DNA from: Clostridiales bacterium | GTDB taxonomy: Bacteria > Bacillota > Clostridia > Oscillospirales > Oscillospiraceae | Assembly (NCBI GenBank): GCA_004556965.1 | Contig: SFFE01000008.1 | Coordinates: forward strand, 10,077 to 74,076 | Reading direction: 5' to 3' | DNA length: 64,000 bases | Part shown: piece after piece, positions 1 through 56,877 of the stretch | Layout: each line of letters starts with the position of its first letter | Numbering within the stretch: the stretch's first letter is position 1 | Program-made: the position numbers and the translations under genes | The notes under the pieces: model-generated | The model's database searches: none | What the model was told of the DNA's origin: nothing | What the model saw: only the letters and a program-made list of their open reading frames with translations

Positions 1-2
1 TG

Positions 3-821: not shown

Positions 822-3475
822 AACCGATCTCTGTACGATTCAAATGCTTCGGTCCTTATATGGAAGAACAGACTGTAGATTTCGAGAAACTTAGCAACAA
901 TGGGATATTCCTTATTTGTGGAGAAACTGGATCAGGTAAAACCACCATCCTAGACGCGATCTGCTATGCTCTGTTTGGCAAATCCAGCGGTGGTCTCCGG
1001 CAGGGAATCGAAGTGATGCGCTGTAAATCGGCAAAAAAGGCGGATAAGACCATTGTAGAATACATTTTTGAATGCAATGGAAACAGATACAGATTCCATC
1101 GTGAGTTGAGGTATGGCACGAAGAATCTGATAGAGGAAGATGGGTGTGAGATACTCCAAAATGACGAGTTTGTACCCATATTTCAGAATCCGAAGGCGAC
1201 CGTTGTAAACAAAAAAGCCGAGGAAATCCTCGGCCTCACGTATGATCAGTTCTGCCAGGTCGTTATGCTCCCCCAGGGTAAATTCGAAAGATTGCTTGTT
1301 TCCAATTCAGAGGAGAAGGAAAAAATCCTTACTAGCCTTTTTCACGCAGACAAGTGGAATTACATTGTCCTTGGTGTAAAGGCAAAAGTTGACGAGAAAA
1401 CTAAGCGTCTGGAAAAAGAACTGGCAGATATACAAGGCCAGTTGCGTGTTTACGCATGCACTTCTGTCGATGAGTTGAAAGAAAGAATCGCTGCTTTGGA
1501 AGAAGAGGTTGATTCTCTCACAACGGATGTTCAGAATGCAGAACAGCTCAAGCTACAAACGACAAAGGCTTACGAAGACGCCATAAAAGACAATGAGGTT
1601 TTCACTGCGCTGGAAGACTGCCGCAAAAAATTAGAATCGTTCAAACAGCAGGCAGAAGAGTTTAGTCGTAGACGAAACTCTTTGAAGCTGTCTGAAGCAG
1701 CAGATGCCATCCGGGAGATATATACAGCATATTCCGGTGAAAAAGATAATGCTGATACTGCCAAGCAGGATTTAGAAGATGCAGAGGTTGCCCTGTCTGA
1801 AGCCGAGAGATCGGATAAAGCCGCTCGAAAGGCAAAAGAACTGCATGATGCCGGTAGGGCTTCCTATGAAGCAGATAAAGAATCTCTCATCAGGCTCAAG
1901 GACGCTAGAGGGGTTTATGCCGGAATAGGCGAAAAGAAAAAAGCGGCGGAGGATGCCGCTAAAGAGGAAAAGAAAAAGAAAAAAAAGGCCGATGACGCAA
2001 AAAAAGCGTATGAAACTGCTCGTGGTCAATGGGAGAAAGCCAAGACGGCAAACGATGATGCTGTTGGAGCCTACCTTGATGTAAGCAAGAAGTATGCGGC
2101 AAACATTGCAGGGAACTTAGCTTCTAAGCTTGAGGATGGAACCCCATGCCCTGTCTGCGGAAGCACACAGCATCCTGCTCCAGCAGTGCTTCCTGAAGGT
2201 GTTTCGGTATCCGAGGATGATGTAGAAACCGCCAACCAAGCAATGCAGAACACAAGTGAGACGCTCACTACTGCTAAGACTGTGATGGATGATGCGGAGG
2301 GCAAAAACTCGAATGCTGCAGAGGCCTTTGCTGCAGCCCAAAGTGCCCTGATCGCCGCAAAGACTGCATATGAGCTTTCGCTTGAGAACACTTTCGAGGG
2401 TATCGATGATTCGAAATCTTTGGAAGCTGAGATCAAAAAGGTTGAGGGCAGAATATCTGCCTTTGAGCAGGCAGAAAAAACCGTAGCAGACGGCATCAAC
2501 GCTGCTACATCCGCGCTTAGTGCTGCAAAGCAGCGAAAAACTGATGCTCTCTCAAAAGAGTCATCTGCGAGAGAGAAGATGGTCGCTGAAGCCAAAAAGT
2601 GGGCCGCGGCGCTCGCTAAAAAAGGTTTCTCGGATGAAGCGGCGTTTGTGGCCTCATTGAAGGACAAAGAAATCCTTGTTTCGGAGCGAAGTGCGATTGC
2701 AACCTATGATGCTGATCTAAGAACCGCACAAAAGGCCTTTGATGAACAGCAAAAGAAGACCGATGGCCTCGTAGCCCCGGAAATGAAGGCATTGCAGGAT
2801 GCTAAAACGCACGCTGAGAGTGCCTGGAAAGAGGAAAATGATACTCTCACCACTGCTTCTCAAAAATCAAAGGATATGCAGAAGCTGTATGAGTCACTTT
2901 CTAAGCGCTGGGAGAAGTATCAGGTTGAAAAAACAATTGCCGATTCAAATACCGATTTTGCGAGAAAACTTAACTCCAGCACGGGACTGAGTCTGCAGCG
3001 ATATGTGCTTGGAATCATGTTAACATCCATCACAGTCGCGGCGAATCAACTCTTAAAGACTGTCCGCGGTGGCAGATACCAGCTTTATAGACGCTATGAG
3101 TCATCCGGCAGAGCCCTCAAAGCAGGTCTTGAGCTTGACGTGTTGGATACAAGTAACGGTGAAAAGCGAAGTGTTACAACGCTTTCTGGTGGAGAAAAGT
3201 TCCTCCTGGCTTTGAGCCTTGCCATTGGTCTATCGACTGTTGTGCAAGCACAGAGCGGCGGTACAAGACTGGACGCAATGTTCATCGATGAAGGCTTTGG
3301 ATCCCTTGATTCTGAATGCATTAATGACGCTATGAGTATTCTCCAGGGCATTCAGAAAAGCCATGGTTTAGTTGGAATCATCTCCCACGTTGAGAAACTA
3401 TCTGAGATCATTCCGACAAGGCTTGAAGTCGTTACTTCGGCCGATGGAAACCACATCAAGCCTATAATTGCCTGA
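818..3475 (+). CDS. sbcC: SbcC/Rad50-family ATPase
   Basis: 885 aa. N-terminal Walker A GETGSGKTT, long central coiled coil with CPVCG zinc-hook-like motif, C-terminal LSGGEKF signature and DEGFGSLD Walker B. Confidence 0.88.
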   Translation: MKPISVRFKCFGPYMEEQTVDFEKLSNNGIFLICGETGSGKTTILDAICYALFGKSSGGLRQGIEVMRCKSAKKADKTIVEYIFECNGNRYRFHRELRYGTKNLIEEDGCEILQNDEFVPIFQNPKATVVNKKAEEILGLTYDQFCQVVMLPQGKFERLLVSNSEEKEKILTSLFHADKWNYIVLGVKAKVDEKTKRLEKELADIQGQLRVYACTSVDELKERIAALEEEVDSLTTDVQNAEQLKLQTTKAYEDAIKDNEVFTALEDCRKKLESFKQQAEEFSRRRNSLKLSEAADAIREIYTAYSGEKDNADTAKQDLEDAEVALSEAERSDKAARKAKELHDAGRASYEADKESLIRLKDARGVYAGIGEKKKAAEDAAKEEKKKKKKADDAKKAYETARGQWEKAKTANDDAVGAYLDVSKKYAANIAGNLASKLEDGTPCPVCGSTQHPAPAVLPEGVSVSEDDVETANQAMQNTSETLTTAKTVMDDAEGKNSNAAEAFAAAQSALIAAKTAYELSLENTFEGIDDSKSLEAEIKKVEGRISAFEQAEKTVADGINAATSALSAAKQRKTDALSKESSAREKMVAEAKKWAAALAKKGFSDEAAFVASLKDKEILVSERSAIATYDADLRTAQKAFDEQQKKTDGLVAPEMKALQDAKTHAESAWKEENDTLTTASQKSKDMQKLYESLSKRWEKYQVEKTIADSNTDFARKLNSSTGLSLQRYVLGIMLTSITVAANQLLKTVRGGRYQLYRRYESSGRALKAGLELDVLDTSNGEKRSVTTLSGGEKFLLALSLAIGLSTVVQAQSGGTRLDAMFIDEGFGSLDSECINDAMSILQGIQKSHGLVGIISHVEKLSEIIPTRLEVVTSADGNHIKPIIA

Positions 3476-3959
3476 CAGCTTGATAACGCATCTGAGCAAG
3501 AACGTGTTTAGTTGTTTCTATATTTTCAATGCCGGAGAATCAGGCATTTCTACAGGAAAAAAAGAATTAAAAAGGCTTATCACATTGACGAAGGAAACCG
3601 ATTCGGCTTATTTGGAAAAGCGAAACATTCCGGAAACTATGCCCCGACCGGTGCATATGATTTCTCCGAGTGGAAGGACTGCTTTGACGATGATATCTGA
3701 TCAATATACGAGCACCTTCATGAAGACTTGCTGTACACGAACGAGAAGCAAGAATTTGCAGTTGCTGTACAGACCTTCGAAAAAATCAGCGCACTGTTTG
3801 CCGATATTGGAGAATAAACCATTAAAGACTTTTAATGAGGCCGCATTGGGGCTGTCCCCGATGCGGCCTCGTGCTATATAATCCCCATGAAGGAGGTGAT
3901 GCCTATGATTGTCCTTGCCTGATTTGGAAATCAAATAAAGATAAAGGAGGAAAAATACC

Positions 3960-5441
3960 ATGATTTCCAAAGACCAGTTTTTAGAGCTAAAGCACCTGAA
4001 ATCACTGGGTGTACCCACAACGACGATCGCAAAGAAAATCGGAATATCCGTGCCGAACGCCAACAAGTGGCTGCGGCTGGACGAGGAAGCCTTCGAGAAT
4101 TACCTACGGAACAACACGCCGTATCTCGAACAGTACCGCGCCTTCATCATCAGCATCCTGAAAATCTGCCCACAGACGCCGGCAACCAATATCATGTATC
4201 GGATCAAGGACCAGTTTCCGGACTTCAACTGCAAGAAAACGACCTTCTTCAGATACGTGAAAGATCTGCGGGAGCAGACCGGCTACATTAAGCCATCGGA
4301 ACGTCCCACATCCTTCCGCGAGGAAACCCCGCCGGGCTATGAGGCGCAAGTGGACTTCGGGCAGTTCAAAATGAAGGACATGTACGACCGCAACATCCGT
4401 GTGTACTTCTTCTGCATGGTGCTGTCATACAGTCGGATGCGCTTCGTGTATTTCAGCCGTGAACCTTTCCGTACAAAGACCGCCCTTGACGCCCACAAGT
4501 TTGCCTTCCGGTATTTTGGCGGCAGAACACAGACAATCCTATATGACCAGGATAGGCTGTTTGTTATCAGCGAAAAGTACGGCAATATCATACTGGTGCC
4601 GGAGTTTGAAGACTTTGTACGTAAGGCCGGTTTTAGCGTTGTACTCTGCCACAAGAGCGACCCGCAGACGAAAGGCAAGGTTGAGAGCTTCGTTCGCTAT
4701 GTAAAAGAAGGCTTTTTGCAGGGCAGGCTGTATACCGGTATAGATTCCTTGAACAGCGCGGCATTGGAGTGGCTGGATAAGGAGTGCAACGGGACTACCC
4801 ATGAGCGCACACGGAAAGCGCCGAGGGAATTGTTCCGGGAGGAATCCAAACATCTGACCAAAGTACAGACCGAGGATACTGAGGTGGCGATCCGCGCGGT
4901 ATCGGACAAGCACGCTGTTATATACGATTGGAGCAAATATGAGCTGCCACATTCCCGTGTGAAACAGTATGACACGATACGCATAGAAGAAAACGACGGC
5001 CTGCTTATGTTCTACAAAGCAGACACCGGCGAGCTGATCCACAAGTGCCGCAAATCCGCTGAAGAAGGCGGAGACATTCCATACAAAGACGATGCAATAG
5101 ACATGGAAACGGTTGGAGAAAACGCATTGCGCCGTGTATTCGATGATGTGGAAGACATCGAGAGTTTCATCGCCATGCTCCGTGAACAGAACGGCAGGTA
5201 TGCAAATTCACAGATGAACAAAATAGTCTCGTTGGCGAAGGTATACACCGTCGATCAAGTGGAATCTGCCATACTGTATTGTATCAGGGTGAAGAAATGC
5301 TCACTCAATGAGGTTCAGGCATATTTGCTTTACCGCTACGGCCTCGGCATGGCGAAACGAAAGATGACGGAAAGCACGTTTTATCACTGCAAAAAGCGTG
5401 CGGAAGAAATTGCGGAGGAACAGAATGGCAGACTTGATTGA
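3960..5441 (+). CDS. istA: IS21-family transposase IstA
   Basis: 493 aa with N-terminal HTH and a DDE-type integrase core (YEAQVDFG...). AGGAGG RBS upstream. Followed by an overlapping istB. Confidence 0.85.
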   Translation: MISKDQFLELKHLKSLGVPTTTIAKKIGISVPNANKWLRLDEEAFENYLRNNTPYLEQYRAFIISILKICPQTPATNIMYRIKDQFPDFNCKKTTFFRYVKDLREQTGYIKPSERPTSFREETPPGYEAQVDFGQFKMKDMYDRNIRVYFFCMVLSYSRMRFVYFSREPFRTKTALDAHKFAFRYFGGRTQTILYDQDRLFVISEKYGNIILVPEFEDFVRKAGFSVVLCHKSDPQTKGKVESFVRYVKEGFLQGRLYTGIDSLNSAALEWLDKECNGTTHERTRKAPRELFREESKHLTKVQTEDTEVAIRAVSDKHAVIYDWSKYELPHSRVKQYDTIRIEENDGLLMFYKADTGELIHKCRKSAEEGGDIPYKDDAIDMETVGENALRRVFDDVEDIESFIAMLREQNGRYANSQMNKIVSLAKVYTVDQVESAILYCIRVKKCSLNEVQAYLLYRYGLGMAKRKMTESTFYHCKKRAEEIAEEQNGRLD

Positions 5442-6102
5442 ACTATACGAAAAAGCACGGCTGCTGAACCTACAAAACCTCGCACACGGAAAGATCGACC
5501 TGAATCAAGAGACTGTGTCCAACATAGATTATCTGGATTACATCCTGAGTCAGGAACTGGAGCTGCGCAGACAGGCAGCCATAAAGCGTCACACCAATGC
5601 AAGCAGATTGCCGAAAAAGGATTTCAATCCGTCGAGGCTCAAGCCCGGTATCGCGTGGCAGGTGGAGCAACTCGAAAACATGCAGTGGATCGACGAAGGG
5701 CAGAACCTTGTTATCATCGGGAAATGCGATACAGGAAAAACCACACTGGCAGCGCATATAGGCCAGATCGCCCTGCGGAAGAAAGAGACTGTCTATTACT
5801 GCAACATCGAAGAATTCCTGCGCGTCATCAAGAACAAGGACAAGTCCCGCAAAACGGAGATCATATACCGTTATATGCTGGACTGCTCAGTCATTATCAT
5901 CGACGATGTAATGTATGCCAACATCATGCCGGAGGACTTACCGCTATTTTACCGTGCAGTCAGCTTCCTCAATGAAGAACGAAGCCTTATTATCATTACG
6001 AACCGCGAACTGTCCGGCTGGATCAACGCGGCGGAAGACACACATCTGATGCAGACCTTAGTGGATCGCATAACAGCAAACAGCCAGATCGTCAGGCTGT
6101 AA
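5425..6102 (+). CDS. istB: IS21-family ATP-binding helper IstB
   Basis: Walker A GKCDTGKTT and Walker B IIIDDV. GGAGGAACAGA RBS before the ATG at 5425. Overlaps the istA 3' end. Confidence 0.85.
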   Translation: MADLIELYEKARLLNLQNLAHGKIDLNQETVSNIDYLDYILSQELELRRQAAIKRHTNASRLPKKDFNPSRLKPGIAWQVEQLENMQWIDEGQNLVIIGKCDTGKTTLAAHIGQIALRKKETVYYCNIEEFLRVIKNKDKSRKTEIIYRYMLDCSVIIIDDVMYANIMPEDLPLFYRAVSFLNEERSLIIITNRELSGWINAAEDTHLMQTLVDRITANSQIVRL

Positions 6103-6275
6103 ACAAAACGGAGCTAAAGTGTCCGTTGGCCAAATAAGAATGAACGAATAAACTTGAAAACAATATCTTCGAATGAAGATTGAAAATATAGGGGTATAAC
6201 CATTCCCAATGATTTTTGAAAACCCTTAACTTATCCGTAACGTTTTAGCCAGGGGGTAGGGGGATGTAAATCTCC

Positions 6276-6875
6276 ATGCCTTTTCTATGTGGGAACGGCG
6301 CGGGGTCATTTACGAAAAATCGGGAAATCAAGAGATGGGGCTGCGCAAACCGCATCGTAAACGGAAGAGCAGTATGCGATAGTCATCATGTAAACGAAGA
6401 CGTCCTGTATGCCACCTACCACGCAGCCGTGGAAGCCATGATTGAGGATGCCGGAGCGCTCCTTGAAGTGATCCAGACTGAGACTGAGGTGGAGATGCAG
6501 CCCCGCAACAAAGCGGCAATGGACGAAGTGGAGCGGCAGATTATCGAGCTACAGGAGCGGGTGCTCGACCTGCACAAGCAGAAACGGGCGATGAAAATCA
6601 GCGACGCCTACTACAACGCGCAGGTAAACGACTACAGCCAGCAGCTCGGAGCGCTGGAGTCCCGGAAGCAGGCTCTCCAGACAGCGGACGCCCGGTATGC
6701 CACAGTGAGGATGTGGCTGGCAGACTTCCGGCAGCACATGCAGGAAGGCGACGCCACCGACGACAGGGACGGCAGCATCATGAAGACGCTGGTCGAGGCC
6801 ATCATCGTGTGGGACGACCGCATCGAGGTGCGCTTCAAGTGCGGAGCCACGGTTGAGCAGAAATATGTAGAATGA
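6276..6875 (+). pseudogene. C-terminal fragment of a large serine recombinase (second half of zinc ribbon plus coiled coil); catalytic domain missing
   Basis: The W-C-x8-G-x3-C ribbon half followed by a coiled-coil region resembles TnpX/TndX-type recombinase C-termini. The frame is closed by TAA 6 nt upstream, directly at the IS21 edge. Confidence 0.65.
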
Positions 6876-7097
6876 ACGACGCCCTCGGCAGCCGGAGCAA
6901 TAAACCGGCAGCCGAGGGTGTTTTTTCGTTGTGTTTGAGATTTTGTAGATGTTTTCAGCGTTTACCCGTGGTACAGGCCACAGCCGGAACCGGCAGCTCA
7001 AAGCGCATTTCCGACAAATATCCATCGACTTTGAACCCGTACTTGAACCCGACGCAGCAGCATGGTACAATACCGGCAGCGGAAGGACGGTGGCACG

Positions 7098-7277
7098 ATG
7101 GACACAACGAACCAAGCGGCGTGGGAGACTCTGACCCCGGAGGAAAAGCGCAGGGCTCTCTACGACCGGCAGGTGGCCACCCTGAAGACCTTCCATGAAC
7201 ACGGCGTGATCACGCAGGCGCAACACGACAAGAGTCTGCACGACCTGACCGTGAAGATGGGCTACGCAGACGAATAA
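7098..7277 (+). CDS. small hypothetical protein of the kind found downstream of serine recombinases in Firmicutes mobile elements
   Basis: 59-aa ORF with a GGAAGGA RBS. Assignment is by position only. Confidence 0.45.
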   Translation: MDTTNQAAWETLTPEEKRRALYDRQVATLKTFHEHGVITQAQHDKSLHDLTVKMGYADE

Positions 7278-7870
7278 AGGCTTTTACTGGTGTACTTTTG
7301 GGGCAAATTACCTACCCCTACGCACCGTTTGGGGCAAATACAGCATGATAAATGCCGAATTTGTCTACCAGACAGATCCGGCATTTTTCATGTTTATGGA
7401 GGCTAAATACCTGGTTTCCCTGTAATATCAACGAAAAGTTACTCCCGCACTGTCAAAAAGAACGTGCGGGAGCTCTTTTTATGGTCAAATAGTTCAGATT
7501 TTTTAGGCACCTTTTGGTTCATAATAGCTCTGCAGAAGTCTCGCTTTAAGTAAGAGGCAGAAGGCTTCGAACCCATAAATGCCGTTAGACGAATCAACAT
7601 ATGCTCTGATAATGTGCATGAAAGTAAGGCGTTTTATTTTTCAGTCAGTTTTATCAAAAAGCCTGGTTTGCGGCTGCTAGCACCGAATATTGAGGCGGCG
7701 ATTGCAAGAGGAGTGCTGGATCTCCTCAGCGACTGTACGCCGACCGAGTTCATTATTCTGTATGAGAACATGGCTTCGCTGAAGAAGCTGCTCCGCGACC
7801 ACGTGTAAAAGCAACAGCCGGTGATAGGCCCAAAGGCTTATCACCGGCTATGTTTATAACGCTAGGGTTA

Positions 7871-8452
7871 TTATGATTGTGTCAGATTTCCAAGATATCC
7901 GATGATGTTGTCGCTGATCTCGCCGGTCAGCGCACCATTGTAGTTGCAGATAAAGGTCCCGGCAATGAGGATCATCATCGCCTCGGCCTCGCGGTGCCCG
8001 ACCTCCGGACCGTAAATTGCCACGAGACACTGCTCCATGGTCTCGCGCCACTCGCGAAACTCTCCTTTGACCAGATCCGCGACCGCGTCGCTGTAGTGCG
8101 CCAGCACATAGGTCTGGGTCGTGGCGTTGGGACGCTTCTCCTCGGGATCGCCCTTGGCCACATAGGCCATGAAAGCGTTCATGTAGGCGAGGTTACTCTC
8201 ATAGTCAGCGCGCGGATGTGTCGCAAACCAGGCCTTGCATTTCTCGGTCATATAGTCCTTGGTATAGCGCAGATAGCTCACGACCAGATCGTCCCGGCTT
8301 TCAAAATAGTGCAGGAGCTTGGGATGCGACATCCCGGCCTCCTCCGCAATATCCCGCAGGGTGATCTTCGTCATGGGCTTTTTCTCGATGCAGCGTTCAA
8401 AGGCCATCAGGATCTCCATCCGGACGGCTTCTTTATCAACGATCAAAGGCAT
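7871..8452 (-). CDS. TetR/AcrR-family transcriptional regulator
   Basis: N-terminal HTH block ITLRDIAEEAGMSHPKLLHYF. 193 aa. Last gene of the minus-strand metal cassette. Confidence 0.85.
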   Translation of the reverse strand: MPLIVDKEAVRMEILMAFERCIEKKPMTKITLRDIAEEAGMSHPKLLHYFESRDDLVVSYLRYTKDYMTEKCKAWFATHPRADYESNLAYMNAFMAYVAKGDPEEKRPNATTQTYVLAHYSDAVADLVKGEFREWRETMEQCLVAIYGPEVGHREAEAMMILIAGTFICNYNGALTGEISDNIIGYLGNLTQS

Positions 8453-35427: not shown

Positions 35428-35472
35428 TGGAGCTGCTGGGCAGATTCGAACTGCCGACCTCATCCTTACCAA
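35428..35472 (-). repeat. 45-bp duplicate of the tRNA-Thr 3' half (anticodon loop to CCA); distal att site of the island
   Basis: Identical to 42416-42460. Sequences diverge immediately outside both copies. Confidence 0.9.
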
Positions 35473-35596
35473 TTCTTGCCCCGCCTTTTTTTGCTTGTCG
35501 TATCTTGACGCAGTTTAACACAGATTTTCGTTGATATTACAGTGTTTCCAGGCTGCACGACTGTTTTGCTTTTCGTATCTTGTCACAGCTTGTTAT

Positions 35597-35639
35597 GTAG
35601 TGGTTTTTCGTGTATGTAGTGGTTTTTGTAGTGGTTTTT
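35597..35639 (+). repeat. three direct copies of GTAGTGGTTTTT (candidate integrase arm-type sites, left arm)
   Basis: Copies at 35597-35608, 35616-35627 and 35628-35639. Two more lie at the other island end. Confidence 0.6.
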
Positions 35640-35641
35640 CT

Positions 35642-35868
35642 GGAGCGGCTCACAGACGCACCAGGGCGCGCAGCCGCTCCAGGATCGCGCAGGCCGCCAG
35701 GGCGCAGCCAGAGGCCAGCAGGGTCTCACATGCTGCCGGAGCGGCTCACAGGCGCACCAGGGCGCGCAGCAGCCGCTCCAGGATCACACAGGCCGCCAGG
35801 GCGCAGCCGGAGGCCAGCAGCGTCTCACATGCTGCCGGAGCGGCTCACAGGCGAACCAGGGCGCTCCC
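35642..35868 (+). repeat. tandem repeat array A (family 1: 96 + 99 bp units plus a partial unit)
   Basis: Units start with GGAGCGGCTCACAG at 35642, 35738 and 35837. Each contains GGAGCGGCT...AGCCGCTCC inverted 9-mers. Confidence 0.9.
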
Positions 35869-35900
35869 TGCTGCTATCGGCAGAGAGCGCCCTGTTTTTA
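35857..35900 (+). terminator. hairpin plus T-run closing array A
   Basis: AGGGCGCTC...GAGCGCCCT stem followed by GTTTTTA. Confidence 0.6.
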
Positions 35901-37094
35901 TCATGCCTGTTTTTCTTTCAAAGCCTCCCGGAATACCTCACCCGCGCGCTTTATGCTTTCTTGGTCTGCATGTGTGTACATGCGCAGCGTTACGGCCTTG
36001 TCACTATGCCCCAGCGCCTCCGATACAGATGCAATGTCAGCGCCGTTTGTGATCGCTACAGAGGCGAAAGAATGACGCAGCTTGTGCGGGTGCATACCCT
36101 GCACGCCGTAGCGCTCACCAAACTTGGAAAAGTAGCGCGTAGGGCTTTGCGGGTGCATAGGTTCATAGCTGCCCTGTTTAGTGAACACGTAAACGCTCAC
36201 CGCGCTTTCACTCTGCTGCTGTCTGTGCTGCCGGAGCAGGGGCAGCAGCGCTGCACTAAAATACACTGTGCGCTCCCTTCCGTTTTTGGGGGTATCAAGA
36301 TACACGCCCTTTTCCGGGGTGTAACACAGATTGCCTTTGATGGTAATGGAGCGGCTTTCCATGTCAATATCTTCCCAGCGCAGCGCGCAGCACTCGCCGC
36401 GCCGGATTCCTGTTTCAAGCAGCAGAGAAACATATAACCGCCATTGGAGCGGCTCACCCTCCAGGCATTGCAGGATATAGGAAAGTTCATCAGCCGTGAA
36501 AGCGTCAACCTCACCCCCGGTCTTTTCACCCTTGCGGGGCTTTGGGCGCTCGACCTTGTCCATTGGGTTGCGCGGGATCGCGTCATTTAGATACGCCATT
36601 TTGAAAAACGTTGACAGCAGCGAATAGTGTTTTATAACCGTAGCGTGTGCAAGTCCTTCCCTTTGCATGGAGAGCAGCAGCGCGGAAATATTCGCGGGTG
36701 TAATGTCCGGCATTTTCAGATCCCCTATAGCGGGGTAAATGCGGTTGTTTAGGCATTGCTGCCATACTGTGCGCGTGTTCTCGCTGATAGAAACGGCCTT
36801 TGACGGCATGAAAACGTTTTCCCCGTATTCCTTGAAGGTCTGCACCTTTGCGGCCTCGCGCAGCCGCTCCCGCGCCAATTCCTTTTTATCCTCGCGCCCC
36901 AGGGCAGCGCCTGCCTGCACTTGTCTTTCAAAGTCACGCGCAGCCTTGTTTAATTCGCGCTCGATTGTGCGCTTGCTCCAGCCATCAGCCGGATACCAGC
37001 GCTTGTAAACCTTGGATTTCCCGCGCCCCCGGCTCACGCCGATTTCATAAAACAGGACACCGGATTTAGTGTATTTTTCCCGGATTGATGCCAT
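35901..37094 (-). CDS. int: tyrosine site-specific integrase
   Basis: C-terminal catalytic R..HKLRHSFAS...LGH...Y motifs. GGAGG RBS before the ATG at 37094. Confidence 0.9.
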   Translation of the reverse strand: MASIREKYTKSGVLFYEIGVSRGRGKSKVYKRWYPADGWSKRTIERELNKAARDFERQVQAGAALGREDKKELARERLREAAKVQTFKEYGENVFMPSKAVSISENTRTVWQQCLNNRIYPAIGDLKMPDITPANISALLLSMQREGLAHATVIKHYSLLSTFFKMAYLNDAIPRNPMDKVERPKPRKGEKTGGEVDAFTADELSYILQCLEGEPLQWRLYVSLLLETGIRRGECCALRWEDIDMESRSITIKGNLCYTPEKGVYLDTPKNGRERTVYFSAALLPLLRQHRQQQSESAVSVYVFTKQGSYEPMHPQSPTRYFSKFGERYGVQGMHPHKLRHSFASVAITNGADIASVSEALGHSDKAVTLRMYTHADQESIKRAGEVFREALKEKQA

Positions 37095-37466
37095 ATATTG
37101 AGACCTCCAGAAAGAAAAGATAAAAAAGGGGTATTGACATCGGTCACGATTCAAGTATAATAGACGGCAAAGCAAGATGCAAGATATTTAATCACAATTG
37201 CAGACTTGCGGCGGGAGATTCCCGTACAATCAGAGCCGAGAGCCTTGAGGGCCGAGGGCCTATAATGTTACCACGTTATAGGTATGCCCTAAGGACAACA
37301 ACAAGAGCCAGTGCCTAAGTGCCAGAGCCTATAACGTTCATTGCGTGATAGGTGCAGCTAGGCCAGGCAATTATAAATCCGGCCAGCGCTCCAGCAGCCC
37401 GCGCCACGAACAAAAAACGCTTTGCGTAGTCGTGGTATGGTCGGCATATTGTGAGCGAGAGCCTTT

Positions 37467-37524
37467 GAGCGAGAGCCACTGACAACGCAATGCAGCGTGT
37501 TGTCAGTGGTTCTCGCTCTTTTTG
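37467..37524 (+). terminator. 20-bp-stem hairpin plus T5 immediately upstream of the xis-rep RBS (terminator/attenuator)
   Basis: GAGCGAGAGCCACTGACAAC / GTTGTCAGTGGTTCTCGCTC (one G-U position) followed by TTTTTG. Confidence 0.7.
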
Positions 37525-37557
37525 CGTTCAAACCACTTTGGGAAAGGAGAAATCCGC

Positions 37558-37758
37558 ATGAACAAAGCACCATTCCAGAAAATCACAGAGGCCAGCAAAA
37601 CAACTGGGCTTTCGCAGTCGTTCCTCCGCAAAGGCTGCAAGGCCGGGAGCGTGCCGCATATCGTGAGCGGCAACGTGTATTACATTGATGTGGAGCGGCT
37701 GCTTGAGCGGCTGCGCACGTCGCCGGAGGCGTTCAGCGCCGTGCAAGGGGGTAAATAA
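37558..37758 (+). CDS. xis: excisionase/MerR-like HTH DNA-binding protein
   Basis: 66 aa with HTH block ITEASKTTGLSQSFLRKGCKAG. AAAGGAG RBS. Stop overlaps the rep ATG. Confidence 0.65.
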   Translation: MNKAPFQKITEASKTTGLSQSFLRKGCKAGSVPHIVSGNVYYIDVERLLERLRTSPEAFSAVQGGK

Positions 37759-38504
37759 TGCCCAGGACACGAAAGGTAAAACGAGTGGAGGCGGGGCAGC
37801 TTGTGAAGATCACCACATACACACAAGTCTTTCCACAGGATCAACCGGAGCACCGCGCCGCAAAGGCCAAAGCGACAAACGCCGCCCGGCAGCGCATAAA
37901 CGACAAGTGCTCATATGAAAAGCTGGAGGAGCGGCTATACGCGAATTTCACCAGCGCGGATTATGTCGTTACCCTCACCTATGACGAACAGCACCAGCTC
38001 ACGAAATGGAAGTACATTCGCGCAGCTATGGCGAATTTCCTCAAACGCTTGCGCTATGCGCGCGGAAAGCGCGGGGAGACCTTGCGTTATATCTATGTAA
38101 CGGAGGGGCTGCACGGAGACAAGCGCGTTCATCATCATATGGTTATCAATGCACCCGGCACAGGCGTTGACATTCTGGAAGAGGTCAAAGCCTGCTGGAG
38201 AGAGGGAGCGGTAACAAAAGTGGAGCGGCTTGACATGCTTTCCCTTGGAGCGCTTTCAAAGTATCTCACAAAGGAAAACGTAGAGACCGGGCGCGCCTTT
38301 AAGGGGTCTCATTCCTGGATTGCCTCGCACAATCTGAAAGCGCCAAAGATAACATACGAATTTAACGACATTGGCAAAGTACCATTTGCACCGCCCGGCG
38401 CGCATGTGATCGCCTCCGAAAGCATGAAAACAGACAACGGCTTTGGAAGTTACACATACTTGAAGTATATTCGCGCCGGAGAGCAGCCGCAGGCGAACAC
38501 ATAA
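37758..38504 (+). CDS. rep: HUH-superfamily rolling-circle replication initiator-like protein
   Basis: Motif 1 VVTLTYD, HUH motif HHHMVIN and Tyr motif LSKYLTKE. 248 aa. Paralogue of 55862..56608. Confidence 0.7.
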   Translation: MPRTRKVKRVEAGQLVKITTYTQVFPQDQPEHRAAKAKATNAARQRINDKCSYEKLEERLYANFTSADYVVTLTYDEQHQLTKWKYIRAAMANFLKRLRYARGKRGETLRYIYVTEGLHGDKRVHHHMVINAPGTGVDILEEVKACWREGAVTKVERLDMLSLGALSKYLTKENVETGRAFKGSHSWIASHNLKAPKITYEFNDIGKVPFAPPGAHVIASESMKTDNGFGSYTYLKYIRAGEQPQANT

Positions 38505-38730
38505 CGCCAGCGGAATGAAAGGGCAGAGAGCACGCCGCAGGCATAAAAACGCTATGCCGGAGCGGCTGCCCTGCCGCGCACAATCAAGCCACAGCAGCGG
38601 CTAAATTGTGCAGCTTTCACAAAAAAGTGAATACGCGTTTATAACTTGAAACAAGGTATATCTTTTGGAGGAAGGCCGTCAAAAACGTTGAAATACCAAC
38701 GTTTAGCGGGTATGATTGCACTATGAGCAC

Positions 38731-39130
38731 CGGAGCGGCTTTGCATCAGCTTTTCAGAGGCCAGCGCCGCCGCGCTTGTGCCCAATTCGGACACGCCGGA
38801 GCGCAGCCGCTCCAGGATCGCGCAGAGCGCACAAGGGCGCGCAGCCGCTCCAGGCCGCCCCAGGGGGAGCACCCCTCCCCCGGTCAAGAGGCGCGCTCAT
38901 GCCGCCAGCGCCGATATACCCCCGAAGTATTATTTTTTTCTCATATACGCGGAATAAACAAAGCGCGCAGGCCGCATGTGTGATTCATGCGCGCGTGATC
39001 GCGCAGGCCGTCCAGATCGCACCAGGGAGCGCAGCCGCTCCAGGATCACAGAGGCCGCCAGGGCGCAGCGGAGGCCAGCAGGGTCTCACACGCTGCCGGA
39101 GCGGCTCACAGAGCACAGCAGCCGCTCAAT
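38731..39130 (+). repeat. repeat array B (family 1, degenerate and interrupted)
   Basis: Recognisable unit pieces (GGAGCGGCT, GCAGCCGCTCCAGGATC, GGCCAGCAGGGTCTCACA) at 38731-38875 and 38995-39130. Confidence 0.75.
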
Positions 39131-39157
39131 AGCGGACACAGAAAGAGAGGTTAAACC

Positions 39158-39631
39158 ATGAACGACAAAAAGAAAATCAAAGCGCAGGCTTTCACCCTTG
39201 AGGTTGACGGCAAAAAGAGCACGTACCGCCTCACAAAAACAAGGCCGTCCATGATTCTGTATTTCGAGCACAAAGACGTTTACAGCGACCAGGGCACGAC
39301 AAAATGTGAGCAGCGCAAGGCTGCCGCTTTCCTGGACGCAGCCTTTGCGCACATGGAAGAGATTGCGCCGGAGCACAAGCGCGCGATATTGTCTGATTAT
39401 GGCCTTGTAGAGGTCGAGCAGCAGGCCGCGCCCGTGGAATGGTTGGAGGGGGTCGGAATCATGCCCCGCGTGAAGAATAACCGCATTGTCTGCCCCACTT
39501 GCCAGCGCGTGACGGAGCAGAGAGTAACGCCAGACGCGGAGGCTGACAATTGGCCTTTCGTCTGTCCGTATTGCAACACGGGGCATTATATCAGCTTTAT
39601 TGGGGAAAACGTTGAAGTGCCAGAGCCGTAA
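39158..39631 (+). CDS. hypothetical protein with C-terminal CxxC...CxxC zinc ribbon
   Basis: 157 aa with AGAGAGG RBS. CPTCQ...CPYCN motifs. Confidence 0.6.
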   Translation: MNDKKKIKAQAFTLEVDGKKSTYRLTKTRPSMILYFEHKDVYSDQGTTKCEQRKAAAFLDAAFAHMEEIAPEHKRAILSDYGLVEVEQQAAPVEWLEGVGIMPRVKNNRIVCPTCQRVTEQRVTPDAEADNWPFVCPYCNTGHYISFIGENVEVPEP

Positions 39632-39667
39632 ACAGCGCCCCGCCACCCCTTGAAAAGCCTCGCCCGC

Positions 39668-40115
39668 GCAGCCGCTCCAGGATCGCGCAGGCGCACCAGG
39701 CGCAGCCGGAGGCCAGCAGCGCCTCACATGCTGCCGGAGCGGCTCACAGACGCACCAGGGAGCGCAGCAGCCGCTCCAGGATCGCGCAGGCCGCCAGGGC
39801 GCAGCCGGAGGCCAGCAGGGTCTCACATGCTGCCGGAGGACGCCCAGGGCGCACCAGGGAGCGCAGCAGCCGCTCCAGGATCGCACAGGCCGCCAGACGC
39901 AGCCGGAGGCCAGCAGCGTCTCACGTGCTGCCGGAGGCCACCCAGGGCGCACCAGGGAGCGCAGCAGCCGCTCCAGGATCGCAGAGGCCGCCAGGGAGCA
40001 GCGCAGGCCAGCAGCGCCTCACATGCTGCCGGAGCGGCTCACAGGCGCACCAGGGAGCGCAGCAGCCGCTCAGACCTCCGGTGATTCTCAGGGCGCAGCT
40101 CCGAGCGGCTCACAG
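39668..40115 (+). repeat. repeat array C (four family-1 units of 96/99/98/98 bp plus one family-2 unit)
   Basis: Units start with GCAGC(AGC)CGCTCCAGGATC at 39668, 39764, 39863 and 39961. A family-2 unit starts at 40059. Confidence 0.9.
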
Positions 40116-40128
40116 CATACATAGAGCT

Positions 40129-40290
40129 ATCCCCCCCTTGTTCCTTGCGGAGCACAAGCGGACGGCCCTAGCGGCGGTGTTAGGTATTTCCAAATCCGCT
40201 GAAAAAATTCGCCGGGGGGGGATCGCGCGCGACAGGATAAAACCACGCCCGCGTGCCACGGGTTATATTCGCGCGGGTACACTTAAGGGC
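40129..40290 (+). other. conserved non-coding block homologous to the prophage HNH-terS intergenic region (57217-57378)
   Basis: Shared blocks are ATCCCCCCC, GGCGGTGTTA, GAAAAAtTCG..GGGGnGGGGATCGCnCGCGCGACA, CGCCCGCGnGCCACGGG and TCGCGCGGGnACA. The C-run/G-run helix is conserved. Confidence 0.8.
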
Positions 40291-40384
40291 TGCGCAAACT
40301 ATCCCAAACAGAAGCCGCACTTTTTACACACAAAACGGCCAAGGAAACGCATAAATGATACCGGATTATAGCCAAAATAATGCA

Positions 40385-40898
40385 CCCAGGACGCACGGCA
40401 GCCACGCAGCCGCTCAGACCTCTGGTGATCTCCAGGGCGCAGCTCCGAGCGGCTCACAGAGCCCAGGAGCGGGCCCAGGTTGCATAGCAGCCACGCCCTT
40501 TGGTGATCTCCAGAGCGCAGCTCCGAGCGGCTCACAGAGCCCAGGGCAAGCCCAGGACGCACGGCAGCCGCTCAGCCGCTCAGCCGCTCAGACCTCTGAT
40601 GATCTCCAGGGCGCAGCTCCGAGCGGCTCACAGAGCCCAGGAGCGGGCCCAGGTTGCACAGCAGCCATGCAGCCGCTCAGACCTTCGGTGATTTCCAGGG
40701 CGCAGCTGGAGCGGCTCACAGAGCCCAGGAACGGGCCCAGGACGCACAGCAGCCACGCAGCCGCTCAGACCTCTGGTGATCCTCAGAGCGCAGCTCTGAG
40801 CGGCTCACAGAGCCCAGGAGCGGGCCCAGGAAACACGGCAGCCGCTCAGCCGCTCAGACCTTCGGTGATCCTCGCGGCGCAGCTCCGAGCGGCTCACG
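40385..40898 (+). repeat. repeat array D (family 2, about 6 units of roughly 85-100 bp)
   Basis: Unit consensus is GCAGCCGCTCAGACCTCTGGTGATCTCCAGGGCGCAGCTCCGAGCGGCTCACAGAGCCCAGGAGCGGGCCCAGG. Confidence 0.9.
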
Positions 40899-41016
40899 GC
40901 GGGCCACATGGAAACAAAGTGAAAGACCGAGCCAAAAGCGGCCCGGCCTTTCACGTTTCACTTGTGGTGAGGTGGGTTTTCTGTCTTGCCGTCTCGGTGT
41001 GCCAGCACCGGGCAGC

Positions 41017-41307
41017 TTATTGCGGCAAAGTGCGAGCGACCGAATATAGCGCGGAAGTCGCGTGGTTGAGCTGTTCGGCTGATACGTCAATATCACGCTG
41101 GATTACTGACAGCGCAGCTAAGTACATCGGCAACCGAACCGTGAAGGATTTACGAATGCAGTCAGATTCGGAAGATATTGCGTTGTATGCCTCAAGTTCA
41201 AGGTGTTCACACACTAATGCACACGCTTGGCGCGCTTGGTCTAAGGTGCCTGCAACATTTTCAAATTCGGTTGCATAGTCAAGGGCCGCGTTACGATCTA
41301 TTCCCAT
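41017..41307 (-). CDS. hypothetical protein
   Basis: 96-aa ORF immediately downstream of 41320..41595 on the same strand. Confidence 0.45.
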   Translation of the reverse strand: MGIDRNAALDYATEFENVAGTLDQARQACALVCEHLELEAYNAISSESDCIRKSFTVRLPMYLAALSVIQRDIDVSAEQLNHATSALYSVARTLPQ

Positions 41308-41319
41308 GCTTACACCCCC

Positions 41320-41595
41320 TTACGCCACGCAGAAGCGGCGCACAGTTGCCGTCTTGGTGAAGCGCTCGCACAGCTCCGGTGCTGCCTTGCGCAGAGCGGA
41401 AGCGTCGAGCCTGGTGCTGGTTACGAGCTTCCAGGTAACCTTGTAATCCTTCCCGGCCAGTTCATCGACGGCGGCAGCGCTCATGTACGCCTTAATAGCG
41501 TCCTGGATGGCTGCGATCTCTGCATTGAGTTCTTCGGCCATGCGGCGCAGCTCGCGCAGCTCGTTGACCTTGGCTTGCATTTCATTGTTGCTCAT
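41320..41595 (-). CDS. hypothetical coiled-coil protein common in Firmicutes mobile elements
   Basis: 91 aa with AGGAG RBS. N-terminal heptad-rich helix. Confidence 0.55.
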   Translation of the reverse strand: MSNNEMQAKVNELRELRRMAEELNAEIAAIQDAIKAYMSAAAVDELAGKDYKVTWKLVTSTRLDASALRKAAPELCERFTKTATVRRFCVA

Positions 41596-41731
41596 TGGTA
41601 TAGCTCCTTTCCTGTTCGGTGGGAGTGGCCCGTCTGGAATGTATAAGCTTCAAAGCATTCCCAATTCACCAGTATGTCTGGGCCGCTTGCCGGGGGTTTG
41701 TTCCCGCTCCCTTGATCTGTCTATATATTAC

Positions 41732-41787
41732 TATATCGGGGACGATATATCAATTCGCAGAATAAACAAATATATCGGGGGCAATAT
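41732..41787 (+). promoter_or_regulatory. two TATATCG-N4/5-(C)GATAT/AATAT palindromes upstream of the RHH gene (candidate operator)
   Basis: TATATCGGGGACGATATA at 41732-41749 and TATATCGGGGGCAATAT at 41771-41787. A TATAAT lies at about 41824. Confidence 0.45.
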
Positions 41788-41846
41788 GTGCAATGTGTAT
41801 ATTGTACCCAATATAGCATCGTGGTATAATCAATCGAGGTGATTAT

Positions 41847-42044
41847 ATGCCAGCGAGTAAAGCACAGCAGAAAGCAGTTGCTAAGTATATGGCTGCAAAC
41901 TATGATGAAATCAAGCTAAGAGTGAAAAAAGGAAAACGGGACGAAATCAAAGCCCACGCAGAGCAGCGCGGCGAAAGCGTCAACGCCTTTATAAACCGCG
42001 CCATTGATAGCCAGATGGAGCGCGACAACGAAAGCGCAGAATAG
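41847..42044 (+). CDS. Arc/CopG-type ribbon-helix-helix protein
   Basis: 65 aa. N-terminal beta-strand region, helices and a typical ESVNAFINRAI block. GAGGTG RBS. Confidence 0.65.
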   Translation: MPASKAQQKAVAKYMAANYDEIKLRVKKGKRDEIKAHAEQRGESVNAFINRAIDSQMERDNESAE

Positions 42045-42046
42045 CG

Positions 42047-42273
42047 CGCAGCCGCTCCAGGCGTGATATATTGCGGGGTGTTCTCTGCCGATAGCAGCAG
42101 GGAGCGCCCCGCTTTGCGTGTAGCAGCCGCTCCAGGATCGCGCAGGCCGCCAGGGCGCAGCCGGAGGCCAGCAGGGTCTCACATGCTGCCGGAGCGGCTC
42201 ACAGGGGCACCAGGGCGCGCGCAGCCGCTCCGGGATCACAGAGGCCGCCAGGGCGTGCAGCAGCCGCTCCAGG
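42047..42273 (+). repeat. repeat array E (family 1, about 1.5 units plus an inverted copy of the array-A hairpin sequence)
   Basis: GCAGCCGCTCCAGG motifs. 42083-42108 is the reverse complement of 35860-35885. Confidence 0.8.
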
Positions 42274-42325
42274 CATGAAAAAAGCCGGGGCGGCTTGAGC
42301 CGCTCCGGCGTGTTTTTGGGGGCAT

Positions 42326-42349
42326 GTAGTGGTTTTTGTAGTGGTTTTT
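42326..42349 (+). repeat. two direct copies of GTAGTGGTTTTT (right arm)
   Basis: Copies at 42326-42337 and 42338-42349, in the same orientation as the left-arm copies. Confidence 0.6.
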
Positions 42350-42415
42350 GTGCGGCGTGTCTTTCTGACAGAAAAAGTAAAAACCTCGAATCCGTTGAGA
42401 TTCAAGGCTTTTTTC

Positions 42416-42491
<76 letters not shown>

Positions 42492-55861: not shown

Positions 55862-56608
55862 TTGGCAAAAACCAAAAAAAAGAAAATCATCGTTGCAGGC
55901 TCTCTTGTGCTGGAGGCGATATATCCGGCGATCAGCGGCAGGGAGGAGCCGAAAGCACGCGCCGCCAAGCGCAAGCTATCATCGGAAGCCCAGCAGCGGA
56001 TGAATCAAAAGTATAGCTATCAAAAGCTGGAACTGATGCTTGCAGCGAACTTTGTACCGGGCGACTTGGTATGCACGATGACTTACGACGATGCGCATCT
56101 GCCCGCCGACCGGAAAGCCGCGGAGGGAAAGCTCAAGTATTTTCGGGCGAAGCTCAAAAAGGATCGTGGCAAGCAGAAAAGCGATATGCGCATGATTTGG
56201 AGCACCGAGCACCGGCACGGAGACGGACGGTGGCACCATCATGTAGTCATCAACGCTACCGGCGACGACTACGATACGATCCTCAAACTCTGGGGGCAGG
56301 GTGAGATCGAGATGCGCCCATTGCGCGCCGACAAGGAGAAAAACTACGAGAGCCTTGCTCGGTACATGGCAAAGGAGGAGCGGGACAAGCTCGGCCAGCG
56401 ATGTTGGAGCTACACCCGCAACTGCAAAAAGCCGGAGATTGAGACTTTCCGCGTGGAATCCGACACGCCGCTGAACCCGCCAAAAGGGTCGATCGTGCTG
56501 GAAAATGCATCGGAGCGTACCCAGTATGCCGAATACAGATATATTAAGTACCTCGCCGCAAAGCCGGTCCGACGCAGGGCGAAGCGCCGAAAGCGACCTC
56601 GCAAGTAG
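55862..56608 (+). CDS. HUH-superfamily Rep-like protein (paralogue of island rep)
   Basis: Motifs VCTMTYD, HHHVVIN and LARYMAKE. 248 aa with a TTG start after a GGGGG RBS. Confidence 0.65.
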   Translation: MAKTKKKKIIVAGSLVLEAIYPAISGREEPKARAAKRKLSSEAQQRMNQKYSYQKLELMLAANFVPGDLVCTMTYDDAHLPADRKAAEGKLKYFRAKLKKDRGKQKSDMRMIWSTEHRHGDGRWHHHVVINATGDDYDTILKLWGQGEIEMRPLRADKEKNYESLARYMAKEERDKLGQRCWSYTRNCKKPEIETFRVESDTPLNPPKGSIVLENASERTQYAEYRYIKYLAAKPVRRRAKRRKRPRK

Positions 56609-56667: not shown

Positions 56668-56877
56668 GTGTTGCAAACACAAGAAAAATCGAGTACAATA
56701 AAAGTGCAAGGAGGCCGAGCGATTTGCCCGTCGTGCCATACTAGGACGCAGATCGAGATTCGGCAAGATACAGTCCTGATCAACTATCCGCTGTACTGCA
56801 AAAGATGCAAGCGAACAACGCTTGTGAGATATGGAGAGCCTGAGCCTGAGAGCCTGAGCCAATCGACAATGCATTGA
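56668..56877 (+). CDS. Cys-rich KTR-type zinc-ribbon protein
   Basis: CPSCH...T.I...T.L.N.PLYC.RCK pattern. AAAGGAG RBS with a GTG start. Confidence 0.6.
   Translation: MLQTQEKSSTIKVQGGRAICPSCHTRTQIEIRQDTVLINYPLYCKRCKRTTLVRYGEPEPESLSQSTMH

Follow-up and report, generated by a model that had tools for sequence, protein, structure and literature searches.

The island at positions 35428-42460 of the 64,000-nt stretch of Clostridiales bacterium DNA analysed here (contig SFFE01000008.1, positions 10,077 to 74,076; hereafter the window) is a 6,988-bp element integrated in a tRNA-Thr gene and delimited by 45-bp direct repeats. It carries five repeat stretches, A to E (Table 1), which sum to 1,816 bp, or 26% of the island. 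These arrays are a lineage-private, non-coding and unstable amplification, built like a bacterial interspersed mosaic element (BIME), of a short cis word, GAGCGGCT, that recurs throughout a clade of related elements.

Unit families were defined with profile hidden Markov models (HMMs; nhmmer) and tandem periods with Tandem Repeats Finder (TRF). The profile HMMs confirmed the two families proposed in an initial annotation of the sequence, F1 with units of 96-99 bp and F2 with units of 88-89 bp, the latter replacing a period of 74 nt. Eight F1 and seven F2 units were detected across the window, all 15 inside the island and on the + strand, and the two families can be aligned over only about half their length. 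Of the five tandem arrays described at first, A, C and D were upheld by TRF, whereas B and E gave no tandem call and are degenerate remnants. The switch of array C to F2 in its last unit was recovered with the profile HMMs (40062-40118), and arrays A and E do end in terminator-like hairpins with T-runs (-31.3 and -25.3 kcal/mol, z -4.1 for the latter). The arrays had been placed in almost every intergenic gap; they fill four of the six sizeable ones, namely those at 3' ends or between co-directional genes, but neither of the two divergent promoter gaps (37095-37557 and 41596-41846). All five arrays of a related element, L001, likewise lie only in 3' or intercistronic gaps.

The core of each unit is GAGCGGCT(C), 8-9 nt long, with inverse cores AGCCGCTC / GAGCGGCT. 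Successive copies of GAGCGGCT alternate in orientation and lie 30-33/66 bp apart in F1 and 38-39/42-50 bp apart in F2. GGAGCGGCT is present 32 times in the window, compared with 1.07 expected, and 30 of these copies are inside the island. F2 units are best conserved at the motif regions, and the motif is among the few blocks common to F1 and F2. Alternating inverted cores are the layout of BIMEs (PMC2817692), and with two alternating linkers as well the arrays are BIME-like. Reading the units also reveals GGA, AGGAG and GGAGG strings, from which a CsrA sponge or a Shine-Dalgarno sponge can be entertained only as ideas.

Profile HMM searches found no repeat unit in the 57 kb of host flanks of the window. 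A two-family pattern scan detected no arrays in 185,579 species-representative genomes, where 22 single chance matches fell in unrelated GC-rich metagenome-assembled genomes, and none in IMG/VR; the arrays are also absent from 80 IMG/VR loci. The same scan of 241 million metagenome records returned one 1.4-kb contig, L039. By profile and pattern searches, the units are confined to this element lineage and three related metagenomic contigs. Genome-wide scatter of the kind expected for a generic repetitive extragenic palindrome (REP) was looked for and no dispersed units were seen, in agreement with the island-specific character first ascribed to the repeats.

The word itself is much more widely distributed than the arrays. 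GAGCGGCT is the top 8-mer in every array-less clade member, with 14 copies in L004, 7 in L060, 11 in L061/L062, 12 in L064 and 14 in L066. Its density in these relatives is 1.3-2.8 per kb, against a background level of 0.18 per kb in phage and host DNA of the same group. Seven GAGCGGCT sites of the window lie inside int, xis and rep, where the word occurs in several frames and on both strands; three are within int (36349, 36447 and 36862) and two are in frame at the 3' end of xis (37693 and 37705). Lineages that share 44-74% identity have the word at the same codons of int (E-P-L, antisense), of xis (L-E-R-L) and of rep, and the E-P-L site of int is conserved in four lineages. Of the conserved degenerate codons, just 10.8% are the same in every lineage; the kept positions thus reflect a DNA-level constraint on GAGCGGCT. 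L004 has single motif sites where the window carries arrays, and an inverted-motif hairpin with a 12-bp stem stands just after rep in L004 (z -3.7) and in L001 (z -7.2); the arrays therefore look like amplified pre-existing sites. A literature search on the GAGCGGCT 8-mer or comparable elements returned nothing relevant.

Comparison with near-identical copies showed that the arrays are unstable. Such copies of the island are 99.86% identical over 8 kb. In two other assemblies of the same element, L154 and L155, array C has 1.1 units, compared with 4.1 in the window, a clean in-register difference of 295 bp with the rest identical. Assembly collapse is a possible source of this difference, yet the junction needs only a 36-nt identity, the assembler used k = 141, and the two samples agree. 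Array D differs by an 11-bp indel from its counterparts in L152, L154 and L155. Array B is 94.8% identical to that of L003, compared with 98.7-99.8% for its flanks, and its left part forms a divergent patch. The rep region (37746-38516) is 88.9% identical to that of L003; 67 of its 83 changes fall in the third position of a codon, and its flanks are 99.5-99.8% identical. A divergent rep between near-identical flanks points to rep alone having been replaced recently by recombination. Motif sites were also considered as places of recombination breakpoints, and four of the six window-L003 patch borders fall within 45 bp of such a site, a proportion that is not significant at such a density of sites.

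At a greater distance, the window and L001 are 66% identical in int, 70% in xis-rep, 80-92% in F2 units and 87% in the right-hand module. The KTR zinc-ribbon gene is flanked by arrays in the window, L001 and L039, at differing positions: it lies upstream of a conserved non-coding block in the window and inside the array-D equivalent in L001. L001 has its int-attP module inverted but its arrays in unchanged orientation. From these comparisons, the arrays are recombination-active module junctions. The contigs of L003, L156 and L157 all terminate at arrays. Because the arrays break short-read assemblies, such elements are likely under-counted in gut metagenomes.

The repeat units also show a persistent strand bias. 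All of them lie on the rep-sense strand in the window (15 of 15), L001 (16 of 16) and L039 (7 of 7), making 38 units over three lineages, and this co-orientation persists on both sides of int in the inverted int-attP module of L001. The T content of the unit + strand is 7-9% in both families. Each unit holds about three CCAGGR boxes, on the rep-sense strand only, and the ratio of CCAGG to CCTGG is 46:0 in the arrays of the window and 26:0 in those of L001 (72:0 together). The arrays show an approximately eight-fold enrichment of CCWGG, and every copy reads CCAGG on the one strand. CCWGG is two- to twelve-fold depleted in host flanks, array-less relatives and related phage (L004, L060, L061 and L063). 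An RNA or single-strand role would account for such a lasting one-strand constraint more readily than simple binding to double-stranded DNA.

The units had been described as hairpin-forming. An 8-9-bp core stem does exist, with modest thermodynamic support. Array D gave folding z-scores of -2.2 and -3.7 and a single F1 unit -2.9; array C (-0.6 and -1.3) and a single F2 unit (+0.6 and -0.2), by contrast, fold like shuffled sequences. No covariation was found in the unit stems, where the core is invariant and two common polymorphisms of the F2 inner stem are uncorrelated. Among Rfam covariance models only tRNAs reached the gathering score, sub-threshold matches being hairpin noise. There are no U-tracts inside the arrays, since T makes up only 7-9% of the strand.

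Compared with described repeat classes, the arrays resemble a BIME or an extra-origin initiator array most, yet they are a member of neither. BIME and REP clusters of Enterobacteria and Pseudomonas, among them the REPINs with their RAYT transposases, likewise combine GC-rich inverted cores in alternation, two alternating linkers and a tandem arrangement. They too lie outside genes, either 3' of them or between cotranscribed ones, have an HUH-family nuclease nearby and vary in copy number. However, REPs occur in tens to hundreds of copies chromosome-wide, whereas the island units are limited to one 7-kb element lineage and none lies outside the island in the 64-kb window. Each REP forms an imperfect palindrome of 20-40 bp, bears a GTAG or CGTC tag and is served by a Y1 HUH transposase (RAYT, PF01797); the island has an untagged core of 8-9 nt, and its only HUH protein is a PF23343/phrog_3584 initiator. 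Island units further differ from BIMEs in having one shared orientation and one T-poor strand.

The likeness to P1 incA, F incC and P4 crr lies in a short word clustered at several sites around rep, which in those systems is bound by the initiator and in P4 occurs in both orientations (the TGTTCACC octamer). Arrays of this kind titrate or handcuff the initiator, and P4 is also a small tRNA-integrated satellite. Their initiators are not HUH nickases, however, and their units measure 8-22 bp; the island units measure 88-99 bp, the word occurs in coding regions as well, and binding is putative. The plasmid iteron form, 17-22-bp in-phase direct repeats by an origin, is not that of the alternating, out-of-phase units of 88-99 bp seen here, and the island encodes no partition ATPase that would support the centromere role suggested at first.

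Integron attC sites and Vibrio cholerae repeats share with the units a length of 60-140 bp, inverse cores, similarity within an array and co-orientation; attC sites are active as a folded single strand, bracket mobile cassettes and have a tyrosine recombinase alongside. The island differs in that AGCCGCTC / GAGCGGCT do not match the attC cores RYYYAAC/GTTRRRY, the units stand in tandem with no intervening genes, and Int is a phage-type enzyme with arm sites that targets a tRNA gene. It scored 61.7 bits against a cutoff of 265 for IntI-type integrases, and its best families are phage integrases. L5/Bxb1 stoperators likewise place dozens of copies of a short asymmetric word over a small mobile genome, but they are single 13-bp intergenic sites oriented with transcription and bound by the phage repressor, with no tandem arrays or inverted pairing. 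As an element, although not in its repeats, the island is comparable to pSAM2-type elements, which are small, integrate at tRNA genes through Int/Xis and use a rolling-circle Rep after excision; those differ in their actinomycete hosts and conjugation genes, and to our knowledge no comparable repeat arrays have been described in them. ToxI-like repeats of type III toxin-antitoxin systems (34-45 nt, with ToxN) differ in unit size, and no Pfam toxin family was found in the island. A CRISPR was correctly dismissed in the initial annotation: such arrays have direct repeats of 23-55 bp with unique spacers of similar length, whereas the 88-99-bp units abut with no unique spacers. Its suggestion of a size-adjusting packaging stuffer does not agree with relatives of about 4 to 7 kb and near-identical copies that differ by 295 bp.

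We then considered which factor might read the word. The motif is abundant in all 11 loci that have a homolog of the Xis-like helix-turn-helix (HTH) protein and scarce in all 70 Rep-bearing loci that lack one, although the Rep identities of the two sets overlap. Motif enrichment thus appears, from these loci, to follow the island clade and not Rep identity as such; the co-occurrence of core and Rep family that had been proposed as a check holds as clade-wide enrichment only. The Xis-like protein, named earlier as a possible ligand, was rejected as the likely reader: homologs 58-67% identical, with a near-invariant HTH and an almost unchanged recognition helix, sit in the motif-poor islands L144-L151, which have 0-3 copies of the word per 3-12.5 kb and other replication modules (DnaB or Prim-Pol). 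Int is an unlikely reader because the Int of L001 is only 50% identical and has other arm repeats, yet the same word is present. p91/p96, the ribbon-helix-helix (RHH) protein and the KTR protein are each missing from part of the clade. Elimination leaves Rep, which is thereby weakly suggested as a candidate reader of GAGCGGCT.

The core contains AGCGG, the Chi sequence of Bacillus subtilis. GAGCGGCT occurs 8 times in the 57 kb of host flanks, compared with 3.8 expected. The host and phage baseline of 0.18 per kb is sense-biased and is explained by GAG-CGG-CTN (mostly in-frame Glu-Arg-Leu) codons, and neighbouring 8-mers are equally frequent. A host Chi-like or uptake-type word is therefore not supported by these flanks. 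In L146 and L147, unrelated islands that share the Xis-like protein, GGAGCGGGAC is enriched about six-fold, with 12-13 copies of GAGCGGG(AC), mostly on the sense strand; by analogy with the phage DNA, this is probably a codon effect.

Taken together, we infer that GAGCGGCT is a recognition site and that its amplification alters site dosage. Our tentative explanation, which we hold to be possible though short of probable, is that the arrays are amplified cis sites forming a multivalent sink for an element-specific factor, perhaps Rep. HUH Reps and initiators do bind short double-stranded DNA repeats, as in adeno-associated virus Rep (GAGC), geminivirus iterons and the bind locus of pMV158 RepB; P4 alpha binds an octamer present both in ori and in the distant crr repeats, and extra site arrays such as P1 incA and datA titrate initiators. 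A clade of small, tRNA-Thr-integrating rolling-circle elements would own the cis module, and the arrays would be young, unstable tandem amplifications of it. The ancestral state would resemble the array-less relatives, with 7-14 single GAGCGGCT sites and one strong hairpin near rep, and in the lineage of the window the sites in 3' and intercistronic gaps would have been amplified to 15 units. GAGCGGCT would be recognised by an element-specific DNA-binding factor, for which the HUH Rep is a candidate by elimination only. By multiplying its sites roughly five-fold, the arrays may provide an iteron-like sink, or a platform for handcuffing, which sets the threshold for, and then limits, rolling-circle replication after excision. 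As a side effect, the co-oriented arrays would undergo unequal or inter-array homologous recombination, leading to copy-number change and movement of gene modules.

Several observations weigh against such a sink. Relatives do without arrays, and array C varies between 1 and 4 units with nothing else changed, neither of which would be expected under tight dosage selection. One GAGCGGCT copy has been lost from two of array C's four full F1 units. The alternating units of 88-99 bp, with spacings out of helical phase, are unlike the 17-22-bp in-phase direct repeats of iterons. Phage-borne Rep homologs that are 45-46% identical (L063 and L070) show no motif enrichment, and Rep itself was reached by elimination. 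Finally, double-stranded DNA binding accounts for neither the co-orientation of the units, nor their T-poverty on one strand, nor the one-strand CCAGG boxes. If an element protein does read the 8-mer, one short word would control a whole mobile genome, being present in its genes, gaps and amplified arrays; the clade would then be a compact natural system, since arrays of 0, 1 and 4 units exist in nature and can be compared directly. A BIME-like architecture would then have arisen privately on a 7-kb HUH-encoding element, which bears on the origin and spread of REPs and BIMEs.

Some of these observations would be accommodated if the arrays acted in the transcript, as REP/BIME-like + strand mRNA hairpins that lack U-tracts, block 3'-5' exonucleases and shield upstream cistrons. 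The arrays would then tune the relative expression of modules, with real terminators closing the outermost arrays. We regard this as a close rival of the sink, though doubtful in itself. Their restriction to 3' and intercistronic gaps, also in L001, and absence from divergent promoter gaps would be expected, as would the shared sense of the units with + strand transcription units, the conserved promoter at 38688-38716 that reads straight into B-KTR-C-D, the T content of 7-9% without internal U-tracts, the closure of A and E by a hairpin and T-run, and the match to the BIME layout (PMC2817692). However, array C and the single F2 unit fold no better than shuffles, there is no compensatory variation and the F2 inner-stem polymorphisms are uncorrelated. 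Moreover, array A lies downstream of the - strand int and hence would be antisense to int mRNA, and an RNA hairpin role leaves the single genic words on both strands unexplained. The instability of the arrays can also be read as that of a functionless minisatellite, in which the 8-mer is functional but its amplification is a neutral or selfish by-product tolerated where harmless, arising by slipped-strand or rolling-circle termination errors and by unequal crossing-over between hairpin-prone sites. We judge this as likely as the transcript-level role, and so likewise a close rival of the sink, if a doubtful one. It fits the presence of arrays in one sublineage only (with none in the 80 IMG/VR loci or the array-less clade members), the clean three-unit change and the 11-bp indel among 99.9%-identical copies, the decay of B and E and the units without a motif; placement in insertion-tolerant gaps would reflect purifying selection against harmful positions. 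It does not readily explain why F1 and F2, of which only half can be aligned, both keep their boxes, orientation and extreme T-poverty, or why two elements with 70% identity in xis-rep share F2 units that are 80-92% identical. Nor does it explain an occupancy of 26% in an otherwise streamlined-looking 7-kb element and an eight-fold enrichment of CCWGG, a sequence that the host group and its mobile elements otherwise avoid.

A role in DNA recombination would account for the strand bias differently. Units could fold in the displaced rolling-circle strand and be cut and rejoined by the HUH Rep, as in RAYT/IS200-like systems, or by a tyrosine recombinase, as at attC, so that units are copied to new gaps and cassettes between arrays are moved. 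The rep-sense orientation of 38 of 38 units in three lineages, even beside the inverted int-attP of L001, the bracketing of the KTR gene at three different positions, the HUH nuclease and circle formation of these elements (L004 and L001), and inverse cores with a variable spacer resembling REPIN and attC layouts would all be consistent with this. We nevertheless think it improbable: Rep is a PF23343 replication initiator with no Y1 transposase domain, the score of Int is far from that of an integron integrase (61.7 of 265 bits), the cores match neither RYYYAAC/GTTRRRY nor GTAG-tagged REPs, no target-site signatures were found, and homologous recombination between direct repeats explains the module movement and copy-number change equally well. 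In its strongest form this would be a private REP/BIME-like system in which Rep or Int, acting on rep-sense single-strand hairpins, multiplies the units and shuffles bracketed cassettes such as KTR, with the 8-mer as a self-recognition word. That form is also a long shot; if true, a 7-kb satellite-like element would house an integron- or REPIN-like cassette mechanism. The arrays might, lastly, encode a low-complexity protein rich in Ala, Gly, Ser, Pro and Gln, for example through the 307-codon open reading frame (ORF) at 40355-41278. ORFs stay open through array D and the equivalent L001 arrays, both starting with a similar M-x-x-DYSQN peptide, and the F1 + strand is almost stop-free in all three frames, so that the frame-breaking unit lengths used earlier to call the arrays non-coding were an insufficient argument. 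The call itself stands, the openness of these ORFs being due to T-poverty and not to coding. A conserved protein translated through the arrays, the observation set at the outset as one that would overturn the call, was not found: consecutive units are in different reading frames, the 11-bp indel in D puts the reading out of frame, so that the ORF called there has 269 aa instead of 307 aa and begins elsewhere, and changes between the window and L001 are mostly non-synonymous at the shared start. With no Pfam matches, and an ORF tail that overlaps the well-conserved antisense p96, a coding role is scarcely credible.

The features of the island are listed in Table 1.

Table 1. Repeat arrays, attachment sites, genes and control regions of the island (window positions)
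Feature	Position	Strand	Remarks
attL	35428..35472	.	45-bp direct repeat, copy of the tRNA-Thr 3' end; identical 45-mer at 42416-42460
Three TGTAGTGGTTTTT repeats	35596..35639	+	Probable integrase arm-type sites, left end
Array A	35642..35868	+	F1; TRF 35642-35864, period 99, 2.3 copies, 92% matches; units 35672-35768, 35771-35866
Hairpin and T-run closing array A	35857..35900	+	-31.3 kcal/mol, z -6.1; inverted copy 42076-42121
Tyrosine integrase (int), 397 aa	35901..37094	-	Phage-type; PF00589, E 6.8e-34
Promoter (37134-37161) and long leader with 20-bp-stem terminator (37469-37516)	37134..37516	+	Ahead of xis-rep; no repeat units
Xis-like HTH protein, 66 aa	37558..37758	+	Weak HTH_17 match; translationally coupled to rep
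HUH rolling-circle Rep, 248 aa	37758..38504	+	PF23343, E 1.6e-15; phrog_3584, E 1.7e-47
Promoter-like TTGAAA-17-TATGAT	38688..38716	+	Points into array B; conserved in L001 and L004
Array B	38731..39130	+	Degenerate F1: one good unit 39033-39122, fragments, AT-rich insert
KTR zinc-ribbon gene, Cys-rich	39158..39631	+	PF14205; embedded between arrays
Array C	39668..40118	+	Four F1 units, then partial F2 40062-40118; TRF 39668-40071, period 98, 4.1 copies
Conserved non-coding block between C and D	40119..40384	+	83% identical to L001; also in L004
Array D	40385..40901	+	F2; TRF 40385-40897, period 89, 5.8 copies; double periods 174/177
Terminator of convergent p96/p91 operon	40919..40954	-	Abuts array D
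p96/p91, two small genes (96 aa and 91 aa)	41017..41595	-	Convergent operon; function not assigned
RHH (Arc/CopG-like) protein, 65 aa	41847..42044	+	phrog_13890 and Arc-like phrog_582
Array E	42047..42273	+	Fragment, inverted array-A hairpin 42076-42121, full F1 unit 42125-42220, partial unit
Terminator from inverted motif pair	42284..42309	+	
Two TGTAGTGGTTTTT arm-type repeats	42325..42349	+	Right end
attR	42416..42460	.	3' end of intact tRNA-Thr gene (42416-42491, - strand)

The attP of L004 is flanked by the same TGTAGTGGTTTTT repeats, and L001, with a different Int, has different flanking repeats; this co-variation with the integrase type makes them probable arm-type sites. The assemblies of relatives are circular or contain attP: the contig ends of L004 overlap, and the attP of L001 has island DNA on both sides. 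The element family therefore excises. A sequence-based search found no solved-structure relative of the Rep profile, and PADLOC gave nothing significant for the island proteins, its sole match being p91 to LmuB (E 0.0086). The L001 homolog of the RHH protein weakly matches RepB-RCR_reg. In L004 (5047-5801), a zeta-toxin-like gene follows the RHH gene, at the position held by array E in the window.

The region ahead of xis-rep (37134-37557) has a perfect TTGACA-16-TATAAT followed by a leader of about 400 nt, and by its sequence resembles an attenuator or countertranscript control region. Beyond rep, the stretch 38600-38730 is kept in relatives (L001 3538-3660; L004 3518-3595) and is a candidate double-strand origin and promoter; it contains CTTGAA at 38645-38650, which resembles the pC194/phiX174 nick sequence. 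The block between arrays C and D has a non-coding core of about 170 nt at 40119-40300 (L001 3712-3876; L004 3663-3830), of the form C7 ... G8ATCGCGCGCGAC ..., in which 3 of 34 pairs are compensatory among three distinct sequences only. A single-strand origin and a small RNA are both conceivable for this core.

The immediate right-hand neighbour of the island is a prophage at tRNA-Pro (42793-64000) with its own Rep homolog (55862-56608, 35% identity), followed by a KTR-like zinc ribbon (56701-56847) just upstream of the terminase region, a layout also found in the phage locus L063. To judge from this gene order, the neighbouring prophage could be a helper or the evolutionary source of the Rep-KTR module of the island. 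At the other end of the window, positions 1-8000 have a G+C content of 44-50%, compared with about 60% elsewhere, and are possibly another foreign segment.

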